Assembly (NCBI GenBank): GCA_027622795.1
Contig: JAQBZA010000001.1
Span: forward strand, 1 to 38,994
Length of the DNA stretch: 38,994 nt
Source: Planctomycetota bacterium
Lineage (GTDB): Bacteria; Planctomycetota; Planctomycetia; Pirellulales; UBA1268
Direction of reading: 5' to 3'
Part shown: positions 5,627 through 17,638 of the stretch, one piece after another
Position numbering within the stretch: the first letter of the stretch is position 1
How the letters are laid out: each line of letters begins with the position of its first letter
Position numbers and translations under genes: made by a program
The notes under the pieces: generated by a model
Told to the model about the DNA's origin: nothing
Databases searched by the model: none
The model's input: only the letters and a program-made list of their open reading frames with translations

Positions 5627-6805
5627 TCACAAGAACGGCGTGGGCAGCAACACCGCGTGATGATCAAAGAGAATCCGCGTACCCAATGCCGCTACCATTG
5701 GCGCAAGAAACAGGATTGCAAGGTAAGCCGTCAGGGCAGCCCAACAGCCAAAGCTCACGATAACTCGGGTAGCGAGTGAGGCCTGGTCGGGCCGTGCCAT
5801 CGCTCGTGAGACAGCCCAGCCAACCGCCAATCGCCCTGGCAGGATGAGGAGCACGAACAGCGGCGTCAACAACCAGACTGCATCCCGTGGCGGTACGACG
5901 ATCTTGAGTACGTACAGTGGCACCGTGAGAATAAGAAGAAGAAGAAGTGCCATGAGCATTGCAAACGGTGCACGACGAAACCATTCCCGCACCAAAGCCA
6001 CGTCGATGAAAGCGGTGATGCGACCCGTAGCTGCGTAATGAGCTTGCAGGAACGGCACCCACATCAATGCCAGGGCAAGCAGGATGCCGCCACACAAGGA
6101 GACAAGCGGCGCAATGGGGCGATCAGAAATCCGTGGCATCGCAAAGAGCAGCGTGGGCACAGCCACCCATGCCATCCCCCCAAGAAACCCACCAACACCA
6201 AGTCGAAATGTCTTCCCGGGAGCGAGTACGTCAGACAGCCGACCTACGGCGGCCGCGCTCGCACTCCAAAGAGTTCCGGCCCGCACGGCTCTCACGACGC
6301 GACGGATATTGTGAATCGGACGGATAAACGCCAGTGGACTCGGCCCCGCTGCGAGGGCGAATAGTAAATGCACGGCCACACCGGCGGCGACGATTGCCCG
6401 CGTACGTTCCCATGCAATTGCCGTTGTTGAACCCGGATCAACGAGTGCGGCATCAGCAGCAGCGAAAGCGACGAGCCGCACGACGAGGAGCCACGCCCAA
6501 ATCCCGATTGCAGCGGCCCCCAACCGCGGTACGACTCGCAGCCACGGCAGGCCGTCGTGCAGCCGACCTGATCGGGCAACACGGCCCTCCGCATCGAGCA
6601 TCCAGCCCAGTGCGAGGAGATTGAGCACCGGTACGGCTGCAAGTAACGCCACGAGCATGATGAGCGTCAGACAGCCGGCCATACACGTCACCAGCCAGGC
6701 AACAGCCCGCACCGGGTGGCGCAGAGGATGCGGAGGCGGACCAAGCTCCCAGGGGGCCGTCTGTTCAGGAGTTCTGAGCAACTCAGCGCTAGCCATGACT
6801 GACAT
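5627..6805 (-). CDS. Polytopic membrane protein of unknown function
   Basis: Long ORF with about 8-10 hydrophobic segments. Start placed at ATG 6805 (MSVMASAELL...), because the 68-codon upstream extension of the listed ORF overlaps the divergent DUF1549 gene and is Arg/Pro-rich. ATG 6796 is an alternative start. Confidence 0.55.
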   Translation of the reverse strand: MSVMASAELLRTPEQTAPWELGPPPHPLRHPVRAVAWLVTCMAGCLTLIMLVALLAAVPVLNLLALGWMLDAEGRVARSGRLHDGLPWLRVVPRLGAAAIGIWAWLLVVRLVAFAAADAALVDPGSTTAIAWERTRAIVAAGVAVHLLFALAAGPSPLAFIRPIHNIRRVVRAVRAGTLWSASAAAVGRLSDVLAPGKTFRLGVGGFLGGMAWVAVPTLLFAMPRISDRPIAPLVSLCGGILLALALMWVPFLQAHYAATGRITAFIDVALVREWFRRAPFAMLMALLLLLILTVPLYVLKIVVPPRDAVWLLTPLFVLLILPGRLAVGWAVSRAMARPDQASLATRVIVSFGCWAALTAYLAILFLAPMVAALGTRILFDHHAVLLPTPFL

Positions 6806-6879
6806 CGTAATAGAGAATGGGGTGGATGTGGTTCGAAGACTGGCTACCGTTGTCCAGTCCCTTTGCCGGTTGTGTTGTG

Positions 6880-8544
6880 ATGCCGCAATCATTTCGTGAT
6901 TTACTGCCGCTGATTTGGATCGTGGCCGTGGTCGGAGCAGTGGTCGGATCCGTGGTGGCTGCTTCCCGATCGACCCTGCCGTCGCACCCCTGGGAAGTTG
7001 AGCCACCAAGCCAGGTCACCCGTGAACTGGCTGCCCGAATCGACGCCGTCATCAACGTGCAGATTTCAGCCGCCGGCCTTGAGCCGGCGGCTCTGGCCGA
7101 AGATGTCCTGGTGCTGCGGCGTATGTGGCTCGCGCTCGCAGGCACGGTCCCCAGCGTTGAGGAGCTTCGTCGCTTCGAGGCTGATTCACGGCCCGATCGA
7201 CTCGAACGGTGGCTCGCCGGAATTCTCGCCGACCGCCGTTCGGCAGACCATCTCGCCGGCCTCCTCGCCAGTGCCCTGACCGGCAACGACGGTGGGCCAG
7301 CATTCGTGTTTCGTCGCGATCGCTTCACATCATGGCTCGCAGATGCCCTGCACGCTGGTTGGTCATTCAAGGGGATTGTTGCAGAGATGGTGGCCAGCAC
7401 CGGGCTTTGGACCGGCACCCCGGCAGTCAACTTTGTGACCCAAGCAGCTAGCGCCGGCCAAGTTGATGAGAATACGCTCGCCGGCCGCGTGGCGCGATGT
7501 TTTCTCGGGATTCAGTTCGATTGCGCCCAGTGCCATGACCATCCATTCGCACCGTGGACGCAAACACAGTTTGAGGGGCTTGCCGCTTGCTTTGCGACAG
7601 TGCGTATTTCACCGCTGGGCGTGCGCGACTCCGGTCCGGCAGTTCTTCGGATCGAGACGCCCATGGCTTCCGCAGGAGCGATGCCTCCACTCACGACCGA
7701 TCCTGACCTCAAAAAGCCGTTCATCGCTGGCCGCCGAGCTGTCCCACAGGTTCCCTTCGGCCAACCCTGGTTTACCGGCTCGGGATCTTCCCGCGCGAAG
7801 CTCGCAACATGGATCACACACGACGAAAATCGGCGTTTCGGGCGCGCTGTCGCCAACCGCTGCTGGGCCATCGCGTTCGGCCGCCCATGGCATGAGCCGA
7901 TTGATGACGTACCCGATCCCTCCGTGGAGCCAGGCGAAAGTGATCTGCTGGACATTCTTGGCTGTGACTTCTGCGCCGGGACTGGCGACTTGCGGCAGAC
8001 GCTGGCAGCGATTTGCTCGACCGCGGCCTTCCGGCGAGCCTCGGCTCATCCTGGGCTCAATGATCCATCTCGGGCAGCGGCCGTAACCACCTCATGGGCG
8101 GCCTTTCCGCTCTCACAACTTCCACCTGCAACCATGATCTCCGCGATGATTCAGGCCACTTCACTCCGCACGATCGACCCCGAATCACCCCTTTTTGTGC
8201 GAACGATTCGGTTTCTGCGCGCAGTTGATTTCATGCGGGAGTACGGCCGTAGTCACCCACATGAGCCAGCCACAATTCCTCAGGCACTCGTGCGGCTGAA
8301 CGGCCGACTGGCCCGGGAACTCTGTGAAGCCAATGTGTTTTCAGGGCCGGGGCGGGTCGCTGGGCTTTCCCAATCCAATACATCAAGGCTCGACACGGCG
8401 TTTCTTGCCTGCCTCAGTCGTCACCCCGATGCAAGTGAGCAGCGGATGCTCATACCGCTTCTCGAAGCTGGCACACCTGCACGAGGTATTGAGGATCTAT
8501 ATTGGACGCTGTTCAACTCAGCGGAGTTCTGCTGGAACCATTGA
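6880..8544 (+). CDS. DUF1549 (PSCyt2) / DUF1553 (PSD1) domain protein
   Basis: DUF1549 core FLGIQFDCAQCHDHPFAPWTQTQFEGLAACF and the typical DUF1553 C-terminus IEDLYWTLFNSAEFCWNH. Start chosen at ATG 6880 (MPQSFRDLLPLIWIVAVVGAVVG, an N-terminal anchor). ATG 6817 is also possible. Confidence 0.8.
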   Translation: MPQSFRDLLPLIWIVAVVGAVVGSVVAASRSTLPSHPWEVEPPSQVTRELAARIDAVINVQISAAGLEPAALAEDVLVLRRMWLALAGTVPSVEELRRFEADSRPDRLERWLAGILADRRSADHLAGLLASALTGNDGGPAFVFRRDRFTSWLADALHAGWSFKGIVAEMVASTGLWTGTPAVNFVTQAASAGQVDENTLAGRVARCFLGIQFDCAQCHDHPFAPWTQTQFEGLAACFATVRISPLGVRDSGPAVLRIETPMASAGAMPPLTTDPDLKKPFIAGRRAVPQVPFGQPWFTGSGSSRAKLATWITHDENRRFGRAVANRCWAIAFGRPWHEPIDDVPDPSVEPGESDLLDILGCDFCAGTGDLRQTLAAICSTAAFRRASAHPGLNDPSRAAAVTTSWAAFPLSQLPPATMISAMIQATSLRTIDPESPLFVRTIRFLRAVDFMREYGRSHPHEPATIPQALVRLNGRLARELCEANVFSGPGRVAGLSQSNTSRLDTAFLACLSRHPDASEQRMLIPLLEAGTPARGIEDLYWTLFNSAEFCWNH

Positions 8545-8557
8545 GCAGATCACTCTC

Positions 8558-9886
8558 ATGAAACGAATGCCCTTGGAGTCGGAAAATGTGATCCTGTGTA
8601 ACGCGTTGCCCGCTTCGGAGGAGCCGCGCGTGATTATCTCGGGGTCGCGACGCCATGTGCTGGCCGCTGCAGGCGGGCTTGGGGTGTCGTTCATGCTCCC
8701 CTCCCTGCGCGCACGAGCAGCGGCCCGGCGGGGCCGTGAGCGGCCGCGGTCACTCATCACGCTCTGGCTGGCGGGAGGCCCGAGCCAACTGGAGACGTGG
8801 GATCCACATCCGGGAACAGCCATTGGCGGCCCCACGCGGGCCATTTCCACGACCATTCCAGGCCTTCAGATCGCCAGCGACTACCCACGAGTGGCGGAGC
8901 GGCTGGGGAGATTCTCCGTCATTCGTTCCCTTGTCTCACGTGAGGGAGACCATCAACGCGGCACTCACGCCGTCCGTACTGGCTACCGCCCCGATCCCGT
9001 GCTTTCCTATCCGGCCCTCGGCGCTCTGCTGGCCCATCAATCGCCTCCAACTGGGCTCGATATTCCAGCCTATGTGGCATTGGGGGCCGACGCCTTTCCC
9101 GGCCGTGGCGGCTACCTTGGCGGCCGCTTCGATCCCTATCGCGTGTTCGTACCCGGATTCGCTGGCCAGAATCTGGTGCCACACACCAACGGTCCACGGC
9201 AGGATCGGCGACTGACGGCCCTGCGTGGTCTCGATATGCACTTCGCAGCGAGCCGTGGCGTCCCCGTTGCCGCCACGCTCCACGACCATACGCTCGAAGC
9301 GGCGCTTGCAATGATGTCGAGCGAACAACTCGCGGCCTTCTCGGTTGTGGCAGAACCGGCCGCGGTACGGTCAGCCTACGGGGAGACTTCGTTTGGTCGT
9401 GGCTGCCTTGTCGCGCGGCGGCTCGTCGAAGCTGGAGTGCGGAGCATTGATGTCACGCTGCAGGGCTTCGATACCCATGCGGCAAACTTCACAAGCCATG
9501 CGGCGCAGGCGACGATTCTCGATGGCGCTTTGGCGGCACTCATCGACGATCTCGCCGATCGTGATCTCCTCGAATCTACCGTCGTGCTTGTGACGGGAGA
9601 GTTTGGTCGTACACCGCAGATCAACCCGCTCGAGGGCCGTGACCACTGGCCACATGGATTTTCCTGTTTGCTTGCCGGGGGGGGAATCGCGTCGGGGCGC
9701 GTCATTGGAGCCACCGATCCCGAGGGAAGGTTGCGGGAGCCTGAGCATCCCGTAACCGTTGCGGACCTGTCGGCTACGGTGCTCGCAGCCCTGGGCATCG
9801 ATTGGCAACGCGAACTGATGACCCCACTCGGCAGACCGGTGAAGCTCGCGGATGGCACACCGGTCGTGGGATTGATTTCCGGATGA
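8558..9886 (+). CDS. DUF1501 domain protein (sulfatase-fold) with Tat-type signal
   Basis: SRRHVLAAAGGLGVSFMLPSLRARA twin-arginine-like signal. LWLAGGPSQLETWDPHPG, SLVSREGDHQRGTH and TGEFGRTPQINPLEGRDHWPHGFSCLLAGGG are hallmark DUF1501 blocks. Start at ATG 8558, 13 nt after the upstream stop codon. Confidence 0.85.
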   Translation: MKRMPLESENVILCNALPASEEPRVIISGSRRHVLAAAGGLGVSFMLPSLRARAAARRGRERPRSLITLWLAGGPSQLETWDPHPGTAIGGPTRAISTTIPGLQIASDYPRVAERLGRFSVIRSLVSREGDHQRGTHAVRTGYRPDPVLSYPALGALLAHQSPPTGLDIPAYVALGADAFPGRGGYLGGRFDPYRVFVPGFAGQNLVPHTNGPRQDRRLTALRGLDMHFAASRGVPVAATLHDHTLEAALAMMSSEQLAAFSVVAEPAAVRSAYGETSFGRGCLVARRLVEAGVRSIDVTLQGFDTHAANFTSHAAQATILDGALAALIDDLADRDLLESTVVLVTGEFGRTPQINPLEGRDHWPHGFSCLLAGGGIASGRVIGATDPEGRLREPEHPVTVADLSATVLAALGIDWQRELMTPLGRPVKLADGTPVVGLISG

Positions 9887-10161
9887 CGCAAGACTTTTTC
9901 GGGTGATTGCGGCCAGCGGCAGGGGCGTATTGTTGCGGTCGAGGTTCCTCGGGAGGCCTACTCGGATGGATCCGCCGCGGCATTGATGCGGATGGTAAAT
10001 CACTGGCTTGCGGTAGCCAATGAGATGCGGTCAACGAGCGGTGGAATGTTTTTGCCGCATTCCCGCGGCTCATTGCCCACCAGCCGCCGGTAGCGGTAGA
10101 GTGCCGAATCTGGGACGGAGGTGTTCCCGCCGAATGTGCAAATCGCTGGGAGGGATCGGAA

Positions 10162-11121
10162 ATGCCTGATGACATGGCAACGAACGTGTCACCTGCCACT
10201 CGTGCGGCGAATGCGGCACTGATGATGAGTGCCGCACTTCGCTTGGGCGTGGGCCTCCCGTCGGGTGTGGAACAACAGTCGGCCGAGGCACTCGATGCGG
10301 TCGCGTCATCACTCCGTCAAGGTGATGGACATGCCCCGGCTTCCACGATTGATGCTCTCGTTACCACGGTGCCTGCACCCGCTCGCGGTATCATGCGGCT
10401 TGCCCTCGCGGTAGCCGACGTACGACGACTGCTTACAGTACTCGACCAGATCGTGGCCAGCGATCGGTGGAATCGCTGGGAAACGAGACTTGCCTTGGCC
10501 TACCCGACAGGCGTCTGCCTCGCGGCATTCGTTGGGATAGCTCTCGTTGCGCTGGTCAACGAGCCGTCCTTGAACGCACTTGCGGAGTCAACCGTGTTGC
10601 CCCAGGTGCCGTCGGCACCCGTGCCCCACCCGGTCTGGGAGGCCGTGTCTGTGCCGGCAGCGACGTCGGCGGGAGGGGTACTTCTCGGTGTTCTCGTCTG
10701 GTGGAGCCGAAGCGGTATCCGTGCCAAAGCGGCGCGCCAACGGGCTGCGGTTGCCTGCGAAGTCGAGGCAATCTTTACGGAAGTTGAGCTCGATCATCCT
10801 CGGCGAAAAAAGATTTTGGCTGATCTTGCGGCTGGAGAAGGCTCGGCGCTCGCCGGTCCGTTACAGCCACCGTTGGCTCTGGCCGTCGCGGCCTTTCCGT
10901 TGGCAGAACGGTCAGCAGCGCTCCGTGAAGTAGCAACTCTCTACCGCCACACAGCCGAAGCCGACAGAACGGCCAGACGGGCGCTGCTGCCGGCAGGAGC
11001 CAGTGTTGTGGCGGGGCTCGCCGTGCTGCTCTTCGGCATCGCGCTGTTTCTGCCGTTGGTGCAGTTCTTCAGTCGGATCGCAGCCATGCCGGCGGCCCCG
11101 CCATGGAGTCCTGGCCTATGA
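10162..11121 (+). CDS. GspF/PilC-like platform protein paralogue A (most degenerate of three)
   Basis: A GGGAGGG Shine-Dalgarno-like element sits 7 nt before the ATG. It shares with the next two ORFs the segment 'ALAYP + TM helix + x-P' (RLALAYPTGVCLAAFVGIALVALVNEPSLNAL). It also shares a terminal TM helix (LLFGIALFLPLVQFFSRI), which is the layout of T2SS-F family proteins. Confidence 0.45.
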   Translation: MPDDMATNVSPATRAANAALMMSAALRLGVGLPSGVEQQSAEALDAVASSLRQGDGHAPASTIDALVTTVPAPARGIMRLALAVADVRRLLTVLDQIVASDRWNRWETRLALAYPTGVCLAAFVGIALVALVNEPSLNALAESTVLPQVPSAPVPHPVWEAVSVPAATSAGGVLLGVLVWWSRSGIRAKAARQRAAVACEVEAIFTEVELDHPRRKKILADLAAGEGSALAGPLQPPLALAVAAFPLAERSAALREVATLYRHTAEADRTARRALLPAGASVVAGLAVLLFGIALFLPLVQFFSRIAAMPAAPPWSPGL

Positions 11122-12011
11122 CATCGTTACTATCGTCATATGTGCTGCAAGCCATCAGTCGACATCACAGCGCGGCGCGGCTCGTCAGGGCACTTGCTGA
11201 GGACATGCCCGCCGCCCGGGGACGACCTTGGCAAGCGATCGCAGATGCACTCGATTCAAACGATGTCGATATGGCAAAACGGATCGACGCTCCAGATGCT
11301 CAGTATTGGCTTCCACTGATCGCAAGCCGCCGGAATGACCCGCAGATGCTGTCGCGTCTGGTGCGGGCGGCTGGCCAACGGATGCAACAAGCCTCTGGAG
11401 GCTGGGCAGCACTGGCTTATCCGTTGGTCATTGTCGGATTTTCCATCGTAGTGATGATCATTCTCTCGGTACTCGTCATGCCGGTTTTTTCCGACATGTT
11501 CACTGACTTTGGCCTCGAACTCCCGGCGGCCACAAGGGCCGTGATTGGTTTCATGGGGTTTCTGGCCACGGGCTGGGGCCCCCTGCTCGTGGCGCTGGGC
11601 GTGATTGCAGTGGGCCGCTGGATCCTTATTACCCGATCACCCCGCGGCCCCGGCATAGCTGAAGGGTTCACGCGCAACCTGGCAATGCTTGCCGAAGCCG
11701 GCCTCCCTCAGCAAGACGCCATCGCGCTTGCGGCTACCGCAGTCGGAGTGCCTCCGGCAGCCGCAGCATCCGGGAACCGTCACAGACCGATTGAGGTCGT
11801 TGTCGACATGGCACTTCATCATGAAGCAAAAGCATCCGCAATTCTGCTGTCAGCGATCGCCGACTGTCATGCGGATCGCGCCCGCAGCAGTCTGTGGTCC
11901 ACCCAGTGGCTGATCGGTCCGGTAGCCATTGGCGTGGTCGGACTTCTTGTGGGCCTGATCATGATTGCACTGTTTATGCCACTTGTCAGACTTGTTTCCG
12001 GACTCTCGTGA
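11118..12011 (+). CDS. GspF/PilC-like (T2SS-F family) platform protein paralogue B
   Basis: AALAYPLVIVGFSIVVMIILSVLVMPVFSDMFTDFGLELPAATRAV matches the canonical GspF/PilC block (YP-TM-vvP.F..mF...g..LP..T). Second domain is FTRNLAMLAEAGLPQQDAI and the terminal TM is LIMIALFMPLVRLVSGLS. Start placed at ATG 11118, which forms an ATGA overlap with the upstream stop codon. ATG 11103 is an alternative start. Confidence 0.75.
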   Translation: MTSLLSSYVLQAISRHHSAARLVRALAEDMPAARGRPWQAIADALDSNDVDMAKRIDAPDAQYWLPLIASRRNDPQMLSRLVRAAGQRMQQASGGWAALAYPLVIVGFSIVVMIILSVLVMPVFSDMFTDFGLELPAATRAVIGFMGFLATGWGPLLVALGVIAVGRWILITRSPRGPGIAEGFTRNLAMLAEAGLPQQDAIALAATAVGVPPAAAASGNRHRPIEVVVDMALHHEAKASAILLSAIADCHADRARSSLWSTQWLIGPVAIGVVGLLVGLIMIALFMPLVRLVSGLS

Positions 12012-12031
12012 TACCCCCGCCGGGTCGACGT

Positions 12032-13048
12032 ATGCAGCTGTTCTCAATCGTCACAAATGCATGGAATGCTTTGCCAAGCCGTGCCTGCAGCGCGACCGAA
12101 TCGATGTCGATTTTGCGAATTCTGGCCGCCTGCGCCCAGGCTCAGACCGCCATGCCGCCGATGCTTGCCGCTTGGGCCCGCTGCCAGCGTGCCGCACAGG
12201 CCAACCGCATCGACGCCATCGTCGACGAACTCACCCGGGGTGTTCCCTTGGATGCTGCACTCGCTGCCTCTGGCAGCGCGATGCGGGATGATCACCTCAT
12301 CGCCGCTCGTTTTGCCGCCAAAACCAACCTACTGCCACAGGTAATACCAGCAGTCGTGAATGTTACCAGCGGGCTATCCTGGCGGTACCGCTCAGCACTT
12401 GGATACCTCGCGGTGGTTCTCGTCATATTTCTGGGTGTTTCAGGCTTTCTGTCACTGCGAGTCATGCCTCTCTGGGCCCAGATTCTTCATGACTTTGATA
12501 TGGATGTCCCGTACAGCGCGATCGTTGCTCAAGCGATCTCACCGTACATCGTCGCCACCAACGCAGGCCTACCGATCCTCGTGCTAGGAGGATTTCTGCT
12601 CATAGCCTCACGTCGGCTAAGGAGATGGCTTGCCAGACCCTTTCAGGCTGGTGAGAGACGGGCCGCAGCCCTCGATCTCTTGGGGATCGCCCTCAGCGCC
12701 GGGCGGCCGCTCCCGGAAGTGGCTCACCTCCTGGCGGCATCTCAGCAGAGCGATCAGAGGTTGACGCAACGCCTGGAGGCCATCGCCACAGATGCCAGCG
12801 GCATGGCCCGCAGTGGGTTGCTACGACCCGTTGAACTCGAGCAATGGGAGCGGCTTTTGACTGTCGCCGACCAAGGCTGGCTTTTGCGGACGGCCGCTGC
12901 GCGACGACGGGAGCGAACACGACAGCGTTGGACACTCGCAGCCGAGTTGATCGTGCCGGTGGGTGTGGCCCTGATGGGCTCTCTCGTTTTGATCGAAGCA
13001 TTCGCGGTGCTTGGGCCGCTTCGCTACCTTGTGCAGACGCTTTCATGA
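12032..13048 (+). CDS. GspF/PilC-like platform protein paralogue C
   Basis: IDAIVDELTRGVPLDAALAASG (F-domain-like), RSALGYLAVVLVIFLGVSGFLSLRVMPLWAQILHDFDMDVPYSAIVA (same block as paralogue B), DLLGIALSAGRPLPEVAHLL (second domain), terminal TM ALMGSLVLIEAFAVLGPLRYLV. Start at ATG 12032, 20 nt after the upstream stop codon. Confidence 0.6.
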   Translation: MQLFSIVTNAWNALPSRACSATESMSILRILAACAQAQTAMPPMLAAWARCQRAAQANRIDAIVDELTRGVPLDAALAASGSAMRDDHLIAARFAAKTNLLPQVIPAVVNVTSGLSWRYRSALGYLAVVLVIFLGVSGFLSLRVMPLWAQILHDFDMDVPYSAIVAQAISPYIVATNAGLPILVLGGFLLIASRRLRRWLARPFQAGERRAAALDLLGIALSAGRPLPEVAHLLAASQQSDQRLTQRLEAIATDASGMARSGLLRPVELEQWERLLTVADQGWLLRTAAARRRERTRQRWTLAAELIVPVGVALMGSLVLIEAFAVLGPLRYLVQTLS

Positions 13049-13482
13049 ACGTCCTGTGGCACAATCCTGTACGGCGTGGTATTTCGAGTATTGAAATGCT
13101 CGTCGCCTTCTCATTAGTACTTACCGCGATGGCTTCAACGGTGCCGCTGTTCGTTCGGCATCAGCGGTTGCTGGCCGAGTCCCGCAGGGAGCGATTGGCG
13201 ATCGAGGAACTGGCCAATCAGGCCCAGCGGCTTCTCTCGCTCGAGCCGGACGAGGTGGATCGGTTTCTGGAGACACTGACACCGTCTGAGATTGCCCGCC
13301 GCCACCTCAACGATGCGGTCATCCACTTCGAAACGAGGGCCTCCGAACTCGGTGAGCGGGTCGTGCTTTCACTTCGCTGGAAGGACACAGGACGACGAAA
13401 TGCCCCCCTTCTGCTGGCCGTCTGGCTACCACCCCGGGGCGCCGTCAATGCTGCCTTTTCCCCGCGGGAGTCGTCCCCCTGA
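13045..13482 (+). CDS. Small pseudopilin-like protein with prepilin-type N-terminus
   Basis: N-terminus MNVLWHNPVRRG|ISSIEMLVAFSLVLTAMAS: a basic leader, then Gly, Glu at +5, then a hydrophobic helix (class III signal layout). The ATG forms an ATGA overlap with the upstream stop codon. Confidence 0.6.
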   Translation: MNVLWHNPVRRGISSIEMLVAFSLVLTAMASTVPLFVRHQRLLAESRRERLAIEELANQAQRLLSLEPDEVDRFLETLTPSEIARRHLNDAVIHFETRASELGERVVLSLRWKDTGRRNAPLLLAVWLPPRGAVNAAFSPRESSP

Positions 13483-14093
13483 TGGCGCACACGCCTTTCT
13501 CACCGCCACCCGCCGCCAGAATGCCTTACGCCGGCATGAGGCGTGGCGCTTCGCTCGCCGAGTTGCTGGCTGTGATGGCATCGCTCGGGGTGGTGCTGAG
13601 CGTAGCCGCGGGATTGGTGCATACCGCCATGCGGCTGCAATCGACCTCCCGACAAGACCTCGAGCGCGACCGCACAGCAATGCGTCTTGCACGTCAGTTT
13701 CGACATGATGTGCGACAGGCAGAAGCCGTGACCACCGTATCCGTAGTAACCGGAGACGACGATGGAGTCACTTCTCCGGAAACACTCGTCGAGTTTTCCC
13801 TCACCGCAAAGATGAACGTCAGGTACCAAGCAAGTCTTCAGCAACTCACGCGACAGGCCACAGCAAACGGGCGAACGACACGGGAAGACTACTTTTTTGC
13901 GTCGCCGATGCAGTGGAACGTGACGCCAACGGATCGATGCATCGTCCTCAACGGCCGTGCCTTGACCCGTAACCCAGCGCGAGGCCACCCGCTTCGGCCA
14001 CTCGACGTCGAGATTGTAGCCGTGACCACTGGTGCACAGATCAAGGAAACCAAATCACCGCCCAGCAACCGCGCCACCAAGAGGGCACCATGA
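13482..14093 (+). CDS. Pseudopilin-like protein with prepilin-type N-terminus
   Basis: MRRG|ASLAELLAVMASLGVVLSVAAGLV with Glu at +5. The start overlaps the upstream stop codon by 1 nt (TGATG). Confidence 0.6.
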   Translation: MAHTPFSPPPAARMPYAGMRRGASLAELLAVMASLGVVLSVAAGLVHTAMRLQSTSRQDLERDRTAMRLARQFRHDVRQAEAVTTVSVVTGDDDGVTSPETLVEFSLTAKMNVRYQASLQQLTRQATANGRTTREDYFFASPMQWNVTPTDRCIVLNGRALTRNPARGHPLRPLDVEIVAVTTGAQIKETKSPPSNRATKRAP

Positions 14094-14578
14094 TGGCTAG
14101 GCAGAAGCACATGGTCGCTCGTCAGGGCATCGCGATCGTCATCGTGATCGGCTGTCTGGCAGCATTTTCACTGGTTGCACTTGCAATGCTCCGTGGAGCC
14201 GTGCTCACACGGCATGTATTTCGAAGTGAACACCATCTGCGACAGGCAGAGCTGCTGCTCGACGCGGCTGCCACGCGCACGGCGGCACGACTCGCAGCAG
14301 ATGCATCCGCCGCCCCCAACTCCCTCGACGAAAATTTGGTGATCCCTGCTGACGCAATCACTGGCAGACACGATGCGCGCATCATGATCGATGTCTCACC
14401 CGGAGATGGAGAGGAAAATCCATCGGCATCAGGTTCATCACGCTGGCGCGTGCGGATTGTCGTCTATTATCCGATCGACGGCCCGCATGCCGTCCGCCGA
14501 ACACGCGAAGTGTTGCTCCCTGCGCCCAATCCCAAACGACAAGCCGCCCGACACCATTTTCAGGAGACTGCGTCATGA
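14090..14578 (+). CDS. GspK/PilX-like minor pseudopilin candidate (no Glu at +5)
   Basis: MMARQKHMVARQG|IAIVIVIGCLAAFSLVALAML: a basic leader, Gly, then a hydrophobic helix with Ile at +5, as in Glu-less minor pseudopilins. ATGA overlap with the upstream stop codon. Confidence 0.5.
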   Translation: MMARQKHMVARQGIAIVIVIGCLAAFSLVALAMLRGAVLTRHVFRSEHHLRQAELLLDAAATRTAARLAADASAAPNSLDENLVIPADAITGRHDARIMIDVSPGDGEENPSASGSSRWRVRIVVYYPIDGPHAVRRTREVLLPAPNPKRQAARHHFQETAS

Positions 14579-15453
14579 CATTCCACGGCCGCATCAGCAA
14601 CCCGTTCAATCGCCACCAGGGTTTCACTCTTGTTGAATTGCTCGTGGTGATCGCCATCATCGGGGTTCTCGTAGGCCTCCTCCTGCCGGCTGTCCAGGCG
14701 GCTCGAGAGGCCGCTCGTCGCTGTAGTTGTGCGAACAATGTGACGCAGATCGGGCTTGCCCTCCATAACCACGAGTTTCACCTGGAAAGCTTCCCCGCAG
14801 GTGTGACCGATCCGGACGGCCCTGTTCGGAACATTGAGGAGGGAATGCATGTGAGTTGGATCGTCCGAATTCTTCCCTACCTGGAACAAACGGCACTCAG
14901 CCGTAACTTCGATGAGGCAGAGGGAGCGTATGGTGCGGTCAATCGTCCTGTCCGCGAGGCATGGATTTCATCTCTCATCTGTCCTTCATCACCTGAACCG
15001 GGACGCCCCGACTCAGAGATCGGTGGCATCGGTCACACAACATATGCCGGCTGCCACCATGAGGCTGAGGCTCCGATCGATGAAAATAACCATGGGGTTC
15101 TTTTTCTCAACAGCAGCATCACATTCAGCGATATCGAAGATGGCAGTTCGAACACCCTGTTGATTGGGGAGCACTTTCTCGGGGTTCGTGACCTTGGTTG
15201 GGTCTCTGGCACCCGTTCAACGCTTCGCAACACGTCACAGATCGAAGAGCCGCAGCAAAACCGTACTCCCGAGCAACCAGCACCCGACCCGCTCTTCGTG
15301 GGCGGCTTCGGCAGCTATCATCCCGGAATGTCGATGATTGGCATGGCTGACGGCTCGACTCGAGCGCTTGCCAACACCATGTCGCCCGCCATACTTCGCC
15401 AACTTGGTAACCGCAGTGACGGTGAGATTCCCAAGCAGAACACGCGGGAGTAG
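14575..15453 (+). CDS. DUF1559 'H-X9-DG' protein with canonical prepilin-type cleavage/methylation N-terminus
   Basis: RHQG|FTLVELLVVIAIIGVLVGLLLPAVQAAREAARRCSCANNVTQIGLALHNHE is the stereotyped planctomycete DUF1559 N-terminus. The C-terminal SYHPGMSMIGMADGS fits H-X9-DG. ATGA overlap with the upstream stop codon. Confidence 0.9.
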   Translation: MTFHGRISNPFNRHQGFTLVELLVVIAIIGVLVGLLLPAVQAAREAARRCSCANNVTQIGLALHNHEFHLESFPAGVTDPDGPVRNIEEGMHVSWIVRILPYLEQTALSRNFDEAEGAYGAVNRPVREAWISSLICPSSPEPGRPDSEIGGIGHTTYAGCHHEAEAPIDENNHGVLFLNSSITFSDIEDGSSNTLLIGEHFLGVRDLGWVSGTRSTLRNTSQIEEPQQNRTPEQPAPDPLFVGGFGSYHPGMSMIGMADGSTRALANTMSPAILRQLGNRSDGEIPKQNTRE

Positions 15454-15457
15454 ATCC

Positions 15458-17638
15458 ATGCATGGCAACACAGCCTCTTTGCGGACGCTTCTATCCCTGA
15501 TGATTTTTTGCTCTCCAGTGCTCCTGCTCTATGTCGCTGCTGGAGCAGAGTCTGGAGACACTGTGTCTCTTCCGATCTCCGGGGACGACGACTGGTCGCA
15601 TCACGATTTCTGGCAGACAACCAATGGCAAGCCTGTTTCGGATGGCTGGCGGTTTGCGGATGGTGCGGTGTCTCTTGTCACTCCCGGCAAGGGCGGAAGT
15701 ATTGTTTCACGCCCCCTGCCCCCCCACTTTGAGCTCAGTTGGACATGGCGGATCGAAAAAGGCGTGAACAGCGGCTTGAAATACCGTGTCCGCCGCTTCG
15801 GAAACAGTCTTTTTGGGAATCACTATCTCGGCCTCGAGTATCAGATCATTGACAGCCGTCCAGAGGACACCTCCGTAGGGTCGACCGCCGCGATTTATGG
15901 CTTGGTGGCCCCGATCGCCGAGAAGACACTCCACCCACCCGGCGAGTGGAACACGGCTCGCATCGTTGCGATCGGAGACCATGTTGAGCACTTTCTCAAC
16001 GGCAAACTGGTCGCTGCCGCCAACACGACAGGGCCGGCCTGGGAGACCGCCATCGCCCTGAGCAAATTCTCCGGCAGCACAGGCTTTGGTCAGCCACGGG
16101 AAGGCGACCGCATCATGCTCACGGATCATGGGGGCCGGGTCACATACAAGGACTTTCATTTCGTACCTCACCCGTCTCCGTCCCCCGAGGTCGCGCATCT
16201 CCCGGGACCGTTTCTCGCAAATGCCACCCGCAACGGCTGGGCAACCAGCGACAGCGTCGTGATTTGGACGCGAACGACGAAACATCGTGAAATGCTGGTC
16301 GATGGCCTGCCATTCGTTTCTGTACCTCCCACCGAGGCCGCGCGGCTGGCCAAGCTTGACGACGCCCCGAGACTGCTTGCGTTACAACTTCCACCCGGAG
16401 CCACTCTTGAAGACATGTTCGGAGCCTGCCCTGGGGCGAGCGGGCGGGTTCGGCTGTCCTACTACCCTGACCAGCAGCGGCACAAAATACGGCATGCTCC
16501 CTGGAAGTTAACCTCTGGTGAAAATGATTTCACCGCCCAGTGGCATCTGGAAGGGCTCACCCCCAACACCCGTTATGTGACGGTCATCGAGGCGCAGACT
16601 GCTGACGGCAAGCCCTCATCGGTGCTGCTTGGTGGCTTTCGCACACCTCCGAACTCACACCAGGCGGAGCCGCTGCGATTCTGCATGACAACGTGTCATG
16701 ATTTTCTTCGCCGTGATGACGGCCTCAATGGACATACCATCTACGGAGCCCTGGAGAAGCTCGCCCCCGACTTCATCGTCCATGCTGGTGACATCGAGTA
16801 TTACGACCAGCCTGATCCCTGGGCCCTCACCACACAGCTGATGCGGTTCAAGTGGGCGCGGCTCTTTGCTCTCCCTGCGAACCGCCACTTTTACAATCAC
16901 ACGACGTCCTATTTCATCAAGGACGACCACGACACCCTAGCTGACGATTGCTGGCCTGGGCAGACGTATGGTGCGGTTTCGTTTGAAGAAGGCGCGAAAC
17001 TGTTCAACGAGGAACAATTCCCCTCGCGACATCCTCGTTACGCCAACATCCGGTGGGGACGTGACATTGAGATCTGGCTCCTCGAGGGCCGAGACCACCG
17101 CAGCCCCAACACGGCGCTCGACGGCCCGGAAAAGTCGATCCTCGGTATACCGCAACGGACCTGGCTTTTTGAAACCCTCGCAGCATCGAAAGCCGACTTC
17201 AAGCTTGTCTTCAGTCCAACCCCAATCGTGGGGCCCGATCGATCGGGAAAGCGCGACAACCATGCCAACACGGCCTTCTCCTGGGAGGGCGAAGAACTTC
17301 GCGAACGGCTCTCACAGATTCCTGGGGTGATCGTTTTCTGTGGTGATCGCCACTGGCAATACGCCTCCGTCGACGAGACCGGTCTCTGGGAATTCGGATG
17401 CGGCCCTGGCAGTGAGAAGCATCAGCTAGGCTGGAAAGCGGGGGATGCGAGGCCAAAGCATCGGTTTCTCCGCGTCGCCGGTGGCTTTCTCTCCGGTGAA
17501 CTCGTCCCGTCCATCGGCAAGAACAAGCCCTCATTGACCATTCGCCATCTCTCTGTCACCGGTGAGGAAGCGAGTCGGTTTGTCTTTCCTCAGCCGTCTT
17601 CAAAAGCCAAGAGATCGCGTTCACAAGCAGCCGATTGA
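15458..17638 (+). CDS. Exported fusion protein: DUF1080 (3-keto-disaccharide hydrolase-like) + PhoD-like metallophosphatase
   Basis: Sec-type signal LLSLMIFCSPVLLLYVAAGA. DUF1080 blocks are NSGLKYRV, GLEYQIIDS, AAIYGLVAP, GEWNTARIVAIGDHVEHFLNGKLV. PhoD-like blocks are FIVHAGDIEYYD, YFIKDDHDTLADD, VIVFCGDRHWQYAS. Start at ATG 15458, 4 nt after the pseudopilin stop codon. Confidence 0.8.
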   Translation: MHGNTASLRTLLSLMIFCSPVLLLYVAAGAESGDTVSLPISGDDDWSHHDFWQTTNGKPVSDGWRFADGAVSLVTPGKGGSIVSRPLPPHFELSWTWRIEKGVNSGLKYRVRRFGNSLFGNHYLGLEYQIIDSRPEDTSVGSTAAIYGLVAPIAEKTLHPPGEWNTARIVAIGDHVEHFLNGKLVAAANTTGPAWETAIALSKFSGSTGFGQPREGDRIMLTDHGGRVTYKDFHFVPHPSPSPEVAHLPGPFLANATRNGWATSDSVVIWTRTTKHREMLVDGLPFVSVPPTEAARLAKLDDAPRLLALQLPPGATLEDMFGACPGASGRVRLSYYPDQQRHKIRHAPWKLTSGENDFTAQWHLEGLTPNTRYVTVIEAQTADGKPSSVLLGGFRTPPNSHQAEPLRFCMTTCHDFLRRDDGLNGHTIYGALEKLAPDFIVHAGDIEYYDQPDPWALTTQLMRFKWARLFALPANRHFYNHTTSYFIKDDHDTLADDCWPGQTYGAVSFEEGAKLFNEEQFPSRHPRYANIRWGRDIEIWLLEGRDHRSPNTALDGPEKSILGIPQRTWLFETLAASKADFKLVFSPTPIVGPDRSGKRDNHANTAFSWEGEELRERLSQIPGVIVFCGDRHWQYASVDETGLWEFGCGPGSEKHQLGWKAGDARPKHRFLRVAGGFLSGELVPSIGKNKPSLTIRHLSVTGEEASRFVFPQPSSKAKRSRSQAAD

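Follow-up and report, generated by a model that had tools for sequence, protein, structure and literature searches.

Type II secretion systems (T2SS), type IV pili, competence pili and archaella share the GspF/PilC platform; it is still debated whether this platform functions as a dimer or as a trimer, and by what mechanism. Guilvout et al. (2023, mBio; PMC10790770) obtained support for a PulF trimer from modelling, molecular dynamics and Cys crosslinking. At the centre of this trimer is a six-helix bundle of transmembrane segments (TMS) 1 and 3, with TMS2 and the N-domain at the periphery, and PulF still works when the N-domain is deleted (PMC10790770). TadB/TadC was suggested to be a trimer of heterodimers (PMC10790770). 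In the classification of the type IV filament superfamily, paired platform genes occur only in Tad and Epd, and Planctomycetes are not mentioned (PMC6668835); the literature on systems with several F genes yielded archaeal PilB-PilC paralogue pairs only. Planctopirus limnophila carries an essential T2SS-like operon, Plim_0410-0401, encoding GspE, PilT, GspE, a single GspF and six hypothetical proteins (PMC10632474). Here we analyze a stretch of 38,994 nucleotides (hereafter the window) from a Planctomycetota bacterium of the order Pirellulales (GenBank assembly GCA_027622795.1, contig JAQBZA010000001.1, positions 1 to 38,994, forward strand). At 10162-15453 it contains a cassette of seven genes for three GspF/PilC-like proteins (F1, F2 and F3) and four pilin-like proteins. 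The cassette probably specifies an accessory type IV filament module, a T2SS-like pseudopilus, with a heteromeric F1-F2-F3 platform and with an ATPase and a peptidase that come from elsewhere.

The last gene of the cassette encodes a member of the DUF1559 (SBP_bac_10) family. This family is very large in Planctomycetes, with 41 to ~100 paralogues per genome. In the literature it appears as an unexplained, expanded family, with 68 paralogues in P. limnophila; in Tuwongella immobilis 91 proteins combine N_methyl and SBP_bac_10, their genes are scattered over the genome, and the proteins are found in membrane fractions. A first-pass annotation of the window, made from the sequence alone, had called the composition of the cassette atypical and possibly an undescribed sub-system. 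This agrees with the data below: the cassette is conserved and always free of a linked ATPase, and no description of an F1-F2-F3 plus four-pilin cassette was found in the searchable literature, many subscription papers lying outside the search.

A conserved cassette of seven coupled genes

The open reading frames (ORFs) and their junctions were read from the sequence. The seven ORFs at 10162-15453 are translationally coupled on the + strand, as the first-pass annotation had described, and are as follows.

10162-11121, + strand: g1 (F1), 319 amino acids (aa), most divergent GspF/PilC-like platform paralogue
11118-12011, + strand: g2 (F2), 297 aa, GspF/PilC-like platform paralogue, nearest to ordinary GspF
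12032-13048, + strand: g3 (F3), 338 aa, GspF/PilC-like platform paralogue
13045-13482, + strand: g4, 145 aa, minor pseudopilin-like, small GspI/ComGE-like member
13482-14093, + strand: g5, 203 aa, minor pseudopilin-like, with a head domain that fits no class
14090-14578, + strand: g6, 162 aa, GspK-like minor pseudopilin without Glu+5
14575-15453, + strand: g7, 292 aa, DUF1559 (SBP_bac_10)/H-X9-DG pseudopilin

Start and stop codons overlap as ATGA at 11118, 13045, 14090 and 14575 and as TGATG at 13480-13484. The single intergenic gap in the cassette measures 20 nucleotides (nt) and lies at 12012-12031. An alternative GTG start of g3 at 12008, used by some gene callers, would remove it. Since the g3 orthologues begin at a Met equivalent to 12032 (MQLF/MPLF/MNLF), the gap is probably real. 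In public records the cassette genes are annotated individually, as 'type II secretion system F family protein' or 'PulF'. The GenBank entry of g2 (MDA1038669.1) is a 246-aa hypothetical protein whose start is truncated relative to the 297-aa form common to all orthologues; IMG names the g2 protein "PulF".

The block of three F genes and four pseudopilin genes, for which the first-pass annotation had proposed a neighbourhood comparison, is conserved. At least 14 sequence-distinct loci from Planctomycetota/Pirellulales carry these seven genes in identical order, at ~25-95% identity, and the 4-nt start/stop overlaps are kept across the cassettes. In these at least 14 cassettes F1, F2 and F3 always co-occur, one copy each and in fixed order. 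Reciprocal best matches gave orthology position by position (g1-c1 through g7-c7). The close and mid-range relatives comprise six GTDB loci from metagenome-assembled genomes (MAGs), mostly Pirellulales, and several metagenome loci, the identity of g2 running from 94% to 40%. On deeper branches (g2 identity 29-38%) the same block stands beside unrelated housekeeping genes, e.g. ThiC and Amt/P-II. The closest full-length (~400 aa) relatives of g2 are likewise part of a cassette, one of them on a 5.2-Mb contig of Lacipirellula sp. (WP_428306267.1), where F2 carries T2SSF_N. Upstream of the block with full-length F2 are a gene for an extracytoplasmic function (ECF) sigma factor and a small gene.

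In the profile search, even the representative ranked ~105th (E 3.5e-19) sits in the same cassette. As all five of the five matches sampled from the top ~105 representatives were cassette members, the family probably comprises roughly a hundred clusters at 50% identity, or more. Judged by these comparisons, the cassette is not peculiar to the source contig and is widespread in Pirellulales-type planctomycetes.

The ratio of nonsynonymous to synonymous substitution rates (dN/dS) between the window and its closest counterpart, locus L008, was 0.10-0.59, with the lowest value for g7 (0.10), which points to purifying selection on all seven genes. Given that the gene order recurs in at least 14 loci with unrelated flanks, that the overlaps are conserved and that dN/dS lies in this range, the cassette is far more than a chance arrangement. 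Two records deserve a remark. L008 (JAYQOK010000011.1), with ~96% nucleotide identity to the window, is recorded as 'Candidatus Kuenenia sp.'; the bin label is probably wrong, because the gene content (DUF1559, PSCyt2/PSD1, DUF1501, sulfatases) looks Pirellulales. In locus L013, a Pirellulales MAG, F2 at 10001-10894 has no single clean ORF (best-segment identity 42%), which would fit a frameshift, an assembly error or a pseudogene.

F1, F2 and F3 are divergent full-length platform paralogues

The first-pass annotation had counted three GspF/PilC-like proteins, and a T2SSF signal is present in these ORFs. Against a gathering score of 25.2 bits for Pfam T2SSF (PF00482), g2 and g3 reached 34.9 and 32.3 bits, respectively, each in two stretches, and g1 stayed below with 17.6 bits. 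The positional orthologues of F1 in L035, L036 and L038 carry PF00482 matches, and in the cassettes with full-length F2 both F1 and F3 have clear PF00482 matches. Pairwise BLAST of g1, g2 and g3 was almost blank. Profile-profile comparison of the ortholog alignments by hhalign gave the following values.

g1 against g2 families: probability 96.4%, E 1e-9, 270 columns
g3 against g2 families: probability 97.6%, E 3.7e-12, 273 columns
g1 against g3 families: probability 96.4%, 286 columns

Because this comparison yields full-length homology, F1, F2 and F3 can be regarded as three ancient, mutually very divergent full-length paralogues. A hydropathy scan gave each of them the GspF layout Cyto1, TMS1, TMS2, Cyto2, TMS3, with three transmembrane segments. 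An origin of the F genes by Tad-like fission was rejected, as each F protein has both repeats.

In an exhaustive profile search, positions 3-297 of the g2-family profile aligned to residues ~77-401 of 400-aa GspF/PilC proteins, with E values down to 5.6e-39. By this alignment g2 is a complete two-repeat platform protein from which only the N-terminal ~75 residues, the N-domain, are missing. F2 also gave partial NCBIfam GspF/PilC/HofC matches, and the sole match of the g2 family among PDB sequences was Myxococcus xanthus PilC (3jc8, E 4.5e-17). The F2 orthologues of L035, L036 and L038 are 403-412 aa long and include PF28597 T2SSF_N. The N-domain is absent from F1 and F3 and is carried in the broader family by F2 alone. 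The clade of the window is a derived one: the N-domain belonged ancestrally to F2 alone, and in this clade F2 has lost it.

Conservation differs between the segments. The mean pairwise identity per paralogue was highest in TMS3 (0.54-0.59), followed by TMS1 (0.35-0.49), which was equal to or above TMS2 (0.26-0.36). The TMS3 sequence is distinctive for each of F1, F2 and F3, and TMS3 is the best-conserved segment of F1. The Tyr-Pro pair in TMS1 is kept in F1 and F2 and reads Tyr-Leu in F3. In TMS3 the Pro is kept, and the position before it, a Glu in PulF, is Leu/Val in F1, Gly in F2 and Val in F3 (pair positions in the window: g2 residues 267-268, g1 276-277, g3 308-309). F3 instead conserves a Glu/Gln at a deeper position of TMS3 (E322). 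The Glu-Pro pair has been reported to be conserved throughout the GspF/PilC homologues. As a hallmark of the cassette, loss of this Glu was rejected: Gly-Pro is common in full-length relatives, occurring in TMS3 of 38/96 of the closest ones, and P0029 retains Glu-Pro.

Both cytoplasmic T2SSF repeats are conserved in F2 and F3, and the first cytoplasmic domain of F1 is reduced in deep clades. In L024, F1 has 75 residues ahead of the TMS1 Tyr, bounded by an in-frame stop; in L027 and L029 it has 21-36 residues there, with a somewhat uncertain start codon. From TMS1 to TMS3 the core of F1 measures 161-163 residues in 9/11 orthologues (all but L020 and L022), and F1 ends in a conserved C-terminal tail (...MPxAPPWSPG).

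As F1, F2 and F3 are always found together, once each, in order and with 4-nt overlaps, they are best understood as non-redundant subunits made in fixed proportion. Two asymmetries point in the same direction, namely the N-domain that in the broader family belongs to F2 only and the reduced first cytoplasmic domain of F1. F1 would accordingly be placed inside a hetero-oligomer with F2 and F3, because its asymmetric degeneration is easiest to understand in such a setting. Alternatively, the three proteins could be independent platforms that became adjacent through tandem duplication, each a homo-oligomer serving a different pilin, a different ATPase (e.g. extension versus retraction) or a different condition. 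Tandem duplicates are common in type IV filament loci (PMC6668835), the strong divergence of the F paralogues would fit sub-functionalisation, and the two GspE proteins and PilT of Planctopirus indicate that several motors could exist. Some lineages would then be expected to have lost or gained one of the paralogues; instead, every cassette seen has one each of F1, F2 and F3, in constant order and coupled by 4-nt overlaps. Moreover, the PulE6:PulF3 model has every cytoplasmic domain in contact with the ATPase, and by this model an F1 whose first cytoplasmic domain is reduced would do poorly as a platform on its own. We consider independent platforms unlikely and prefer a single platform built from F1, F2 and F3.

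The pilin-like proteins g4 to g7

G↓xxxxE prepilin motifs with Glu+5 are present in g4, g5 and g7, and g6 has the same layout without Glu+5. The first-pass annotation had assigned class-III prepilin N-termini to all three small proteins. This holds for g4 and g5, where Glu+5 is conserved, and fails for g6. The N-terminus of g4 reads RRG↓(I/M)SS(F/L)E and is conserved in its orthologues except for truncated start calls in L027 and L036. No Pfam family was matched by g4. Among NCBIfam models, ComGE was matched by 8/10 g4 orthologues and GspI/XpsI by 2-3/10 (best E 1.6e-4), all sub-threshold. The N-terminus of g5, RG↓(T/A)SL(V/A)ELL, is likewise conserved. Its orthologues gave scattered sub-threshold matches to GspH and to prepilin-peptidase-dependent proteins (Ppd-type), 1-3 each, and to Verru_Chthon protein D. 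A single-sequence AlphaFold2 (AF2) model of g5 had an overall predicted local distance difference test score (pLDDT) of 44 and was confident for the N-terminal helix (residues 25-79) only. Both g4 and g5 show the prepilin motif yet fall below the cutoffs of PF07963 and TIGR02532.

The N-terminus of g6 is RRG↓VAVVMVV, and Glu+5 is absent in all orthologues examined. With NCBIfam T2SS_GspK, sub-cutoff matches to the N-terminal part of the model were obtained for 6/10 orthologues (best E 2.3e-4). Because it lacks Glu+5, g6 is classed by its sequence as GspK-like and not as a standard class-III prepilin; GspK-type minor pseudopilins are the known exception to Glu+5. The single-sequence AF2 model of g6 (pLDDT 65) consists of a long helix (2-74) and four strands; a Foldseek search with this model returned no significant match (best E 0.88). 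Profiles of g4, g5 and g6 gave weak matches among PDB sequences, to the N-terminal helix of geopilin only.

The fourth protein, g7, is the canonical DUF1559/H-X9-DG pseudopilin that the first-pass annotation had recognized. It scored 169.9 bits with Pfam PF07596 (cutoff 23.3) and 34.9 bits with PF07963 N_methyl, and it passes TIGR02532 with 30.6 bits. TIGR04294 (H-X9-DG) gave 18.3 bits, marginally under the cutoff of 19, and the motif is legible in the sequence as H-PGMSMIGMA-DG (HPGMSMIGMADG). The N-terminus reads G↓FTLVELLVVIAIIG, in short form G↓FTLVELL, and matches the N-terminal part of GspG with 36.5 bits, below the cutoff. PDB matches of g7 were restricted to the pilin N-terminal helix. 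With 55-76% identity across cassettes, compared to 25-54% for the F proteins, g7 is the best-conserved gene of the cassette, and it is a candidate for the polymerizing (major) subunit.

The GspG/H/I/K matches of g4-g7 were all N-terminal and below the curated cutoffs. Membership in the Verru_Chthon cassette was rejected, the matches being far under the cutoffs: with the model of protein D g7 scored 28.2 bits (cutoff 70), with that of protein C it scored 13.2 bits (cutoff 256.5), and the g5 orthologues had E values of at least 0.04.

No motor, secretin or peptidase is linked to the cassette

The Pfam scan of the window genes found no T2SSE ATPase (PF00437), secretin, GspC/L/M, PilM/N/O or A24 peptidase, and the scan of all frames of the window found no GspE-type Walker A motif (G[PSA]TGSGK[ST]). 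The missing GspE/PilB ATPase, secretin and prepilin peptidase noted in the first-pass annotation were thus confirmed for the window. Tdk (SAMNAGKST), which it had named as the only P-loop protein, is the sole true P-loop NTPase there. Longer assemblies of this contig extended the view by ~8 kb on the left and ~7 kb on the right of the window; these regions hold housekeeping and metabolic genes only and no ATPase, secretin or peptidase. None of the three was seen within 8-10 kb of any cassette, or up to the contig end where this was nearer; PF00437 and the Walker A motif were absent from these flanks as from the extended regions, and neither the GspD secretin nor GspC/L/M was among the Pfam matches of window genes or cassette flanks. 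As a control with the same tools, a Microtrichaceae contig with a more distant match displayed the canonical order of PilM/PilO, PilC and a pilin, followed by PilB.

The ABC-type ATPase that one clade encodes 3' of g7 was dismissed as a candidate for the missing motor, being lineage-specific and of a different ATPase class. The block to which it belongs (GntR, ABC, 700-aa protein) is absent from the window and from L019, L020, L022, L024, L027-29, L035, L036 and L038.

Two explanations would take the missing motor at face value. In the first, the cassette would use no ATPase at all, and an F-like membrane channel or a device driven by ion-motive force would form, with the pilin-anchored DUF1559 (SBP_bac_10) protein and its small partners, an apparatus for binding or uptake in the periplasm. 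The absence of an ATPase linked to any cassette is in line with this idea, as are the proposal that the PulF trimer is an ion channel, the loss of the F2 N-domain in the window clade and the reduced first cytoplasmic domain of F1 in deep clades. DUF1559 also bears the Pfam name SBP_bac_10, and such proteins fractionate with membranes in Tuwongella. However, F2 and F3 conserve both cytoplasmic T2SSF repeats, which are the proposed ATPase-contact domains, and the Glu that the proposed channel has in TMS3 is missing here. Furthermore, every characterized member of the superfamily needs a GspE/PilB-type ATPase (PMC10790770, PMC6668835), and type IVa pilus genes are often scattered, so that an unlinked ATPase has precedent. 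An ATPase-free apparatus appears improbable to us, more so than independent platforms. In the second explanation the cassette is a decaying or non-functional remnant of a complete T2SS or type IV pilus operon after loss of the ATPase and secretin genes, as the missing ATPase, secretin, GspC/L/M and peptidase, the lost F2 N-domain and the F2 reading frame disrupted in one MAG copy (L013) might suggest, but with seven genes intact and syntenic in at least 14 divergent lineages, conserved motifs and overlaps and dN/dS of 0.10-0.59, this is hardly credible and is effectively refuted by the conservation.

Proposed assembly of the filament module

In the accessory filament module that we favor, F1, F2 and F3 would be non-redundant paralogues that co-assemble as one inner-membrane platform, most likely as a 1:1:1 trimer, with a central bundle formed by TMS1 and TMS3 of each F subunit. 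The small proteins g4 and g5 and the Glu5-less g6 would make up a priming or tip complex, and g7 would be polymerized beneath this g4-g5-g6 complex into a short filament. A GspE/PilB-type hexameric ATPase and a prepilin peptidase would be supplied in trans from elsewhere in the genome, and also a secretin, if the filament crosses the outer membrane. A candidate source of the ATPase is a GspE-PilT-GspE-GspF operon of the type that is essential in Planctopirus. The cellular function of such a filament may be secretion, uptake or adhesion.

Several points weigh against this proposal. The association of F1, F2 and F3 is deduced from the gene pattern and from the analogy to PulF, and the PulF trimer itself rests on modelling and crosslinking, with no solved structure (PMC10790770). 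None of the three F proteins of the window retains the Glu that PulF has in TMS3 of its proposed ion channel, and for this reason the F1-F2-F3 platform may not work exactly like PulF. The presence and number of trans-acting ATPases, peptidase and secretin in the host genomes is an assumption drawn from general knowledge and from Planctopirus. Finally, a pilin fold of the g4-g6 head domains is putative: the AF2 models of g5 and g6 are of low confidence, the g6 model gave no significant Foldseek match, and the family matches of g4-g6 all lie below the curated cutoffs.

A more specific version of the proposal would have a natural heterotrimeric, intrinsically asymmetric GspF/PilC platform in which each F protein might dock one of the three minor pseudopilins, so that the tip is pre-assembled. 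We put this version forward tentatively, with less confidence than the accessory module as such. A more radical version would let the module run on ion-motive force without a dedicated ATPase.

Exactly three divergent, coupled platform paralogues are the pattern expected if the working unit of the platform is a trimer. If the heterotrimer is true, it would provide independent, evolution-based evidence for trimeric platforms in type IV filaments, and an asymmetric complex suited to structural work. Three different subunits can be separately tagged, mutated and imaged, which makes the question of dimer or trimer testable. The cassette is, in addition, the first dedicated assembly platform and minor-pilin set that is tied to one orthologous DUF1559/SBP_bac_10 subgroup, and it offers an entry point to the function of that family. 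More generally, it suggests that type IV filament modules are separable into a core motor and exchangeable platform and pilin modules. The main interest lies in the probable natural heterotrimeric platform and in the DUF1559-linked machinery.

Genes flanking the cassette

The immediate flanks differ between lineages.

Downstream, L007 and L010-L013: GntR, ABC ATPase, 700-aa membrane protein
Downstream, L027-L029: ECF sigma pair
Upstream, L035, L036 and L038: ECF sigma pair
Downstream, window and L008: PhoD-like gene

In L007 (7178-13686), and likewise in L010-L013, which form a clade at ~54% identity to which this arrangement is confined, g7 is followed by GntR, the ABC ATPase (GVNGSGKT), a ~700-aa membrane protein without Pfam match and a ~1000-aa DUF7133/HEAT/cytochrome-c protein. 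The ECF sigma pair is located at 7676-8600 in L035, 7881-8814 in L036, 5540-6494 in L038, 5308-6278 in L027 and 14340-15322 in L028; the partner gene encodes ~120-140 aa and is possibly an anti-sigma factor. No ECF sigma pair adjoins the cassette in the window. In the many lineages in which an ECF sigma gene adjoins the module, it may regulate it, which suggests regulation of the cassette by envelope signals there.

In the window, the gene at 15458-17638 (+ strand) encodes a protein that has a signal peptide and combines a 3-keto-disaccharide-hydrolase (DUF1080) with a PhoD phosphodiesterase domain. The gene starts 4 nt past the g7 stop and may be co-transcribed with the cassette; this link was found in the window and L008 only. 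The phosphate-regulated Hxc T2SS of Pseudomonas secretes alkaline phosphatase, and the PhoD-like neighbour recalls it. At 17556-17638 the 3' end of the PhoD-like gene overlaps by ~83 nt with a convergent isochorismatase/ThuA gene on the - strand.

Just upstream of the cassette, at 6826-9886 (+ strand), is a PSCyt2/PSD1 (DUF1549/DUF1553) and DUF1501 pair, and in L028 a DUF1501 gene (15413-16897) also lies near the cassette. The proximity is probably coincidental, because these families abound in planctomycetes. Between a sulfatase gene and the PSCyt2/PSD1 gene, at 5627-6796 (- strand), a conserved 389-aa protein without Pfam match is encoded. The other window genes comprise sulfatases, the PSCyt2/PSD1 and DUF1501 pair, GFO/IDH oxidoreductases, Tdk, UDG and similar. 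Approximately 4-5 kb past the right end of the window (L033, 3112-4011) there is a gene for a 299-aa HHH_3 protein (ComEA-like DNA-binding helix-hairpin-helix), the sole gene of the extended neighbourhood with a possible pilus-related link. A scan for promoters and terminators performed no better on the window than on shuffled sequence (4 versus 1.9 and 9 versus 6.4, respectively).

Comparison with known systems

By its components the cassette belongs to the type IV filament superfamily, as a variant and not as a new kind of system. With the T2SS (Gsp/Pul) it shares the predicted topology of the F proteins and a set of four pilin-like proteins that includes a Glu5-less, GspK-like member and, in g7, the largest and best-conserved one, with a GspG-like N-terminus. 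In contrast to the T2SS, it has three divergent F genes instead of one, and GspE, GspD, GspC/L/M and GspO are unlinked. The DUF1559 head of g7 comprises ~250 aa, whereas the head of GspG is small, and the minor pseudopilins of the cassette are much smaller than GspJ/GspK, whose models they match below cutoff only. The gene order, F-F-F-minor-minor-minor-major, is also unlike that of the T2SS.

The PulF homotrimer model has three platform subunits per machine, as is proposed here for the cassette, and both the conservation of the TMS and the loss of the N-domain in the cassette agree with it. However, a single gene encodes PulF, whose trimer is symmetric and has its channel constricted at Tyr-Pro/Glu-Pro, whereas the cassette has three distinct genes and the TMS3 Glu is replaced. 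TadB-TadC of the Tad/Flp system, together with the archaeal Epd pair, is the only well-known case of more than one obligatory, contiguous platform gene, and in this respect resembles the cassette. The two Tad proteins are halves that arose by fission, hold a single T2SSF domain apiece and are encoded beside the ATPase CpaF/TadA (PMC6668835), whereas the F proteins of the cassette have two repeats and no linked ATPase.

Two further systems come from the same phylum or superphylum. The Planctopirus operon is, like the cassette, planctomycete-specific and combines T2SS core genes with several phylum-restricted unknown proteins, and it is a plausible source of an ATPase in trans. The cassette differs from it in having three F genes and no ATPase. 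Identity of the two was rejected on this architecture. The Verru_Chthon cassette (TIGR02596-TIGR02600) of Verrucomicrobia/Chthoniobacter is likewise a multi-gene, prepilin-like cassette of the Planctomycetes-Verrucomicrobia-Chlamydiae (PVC) superphylum that stands apart from any ATPase. It has no platform genes, unlike the cassette described here, and g5 and g7 match its proteins C and D in the N-terminal motif only.

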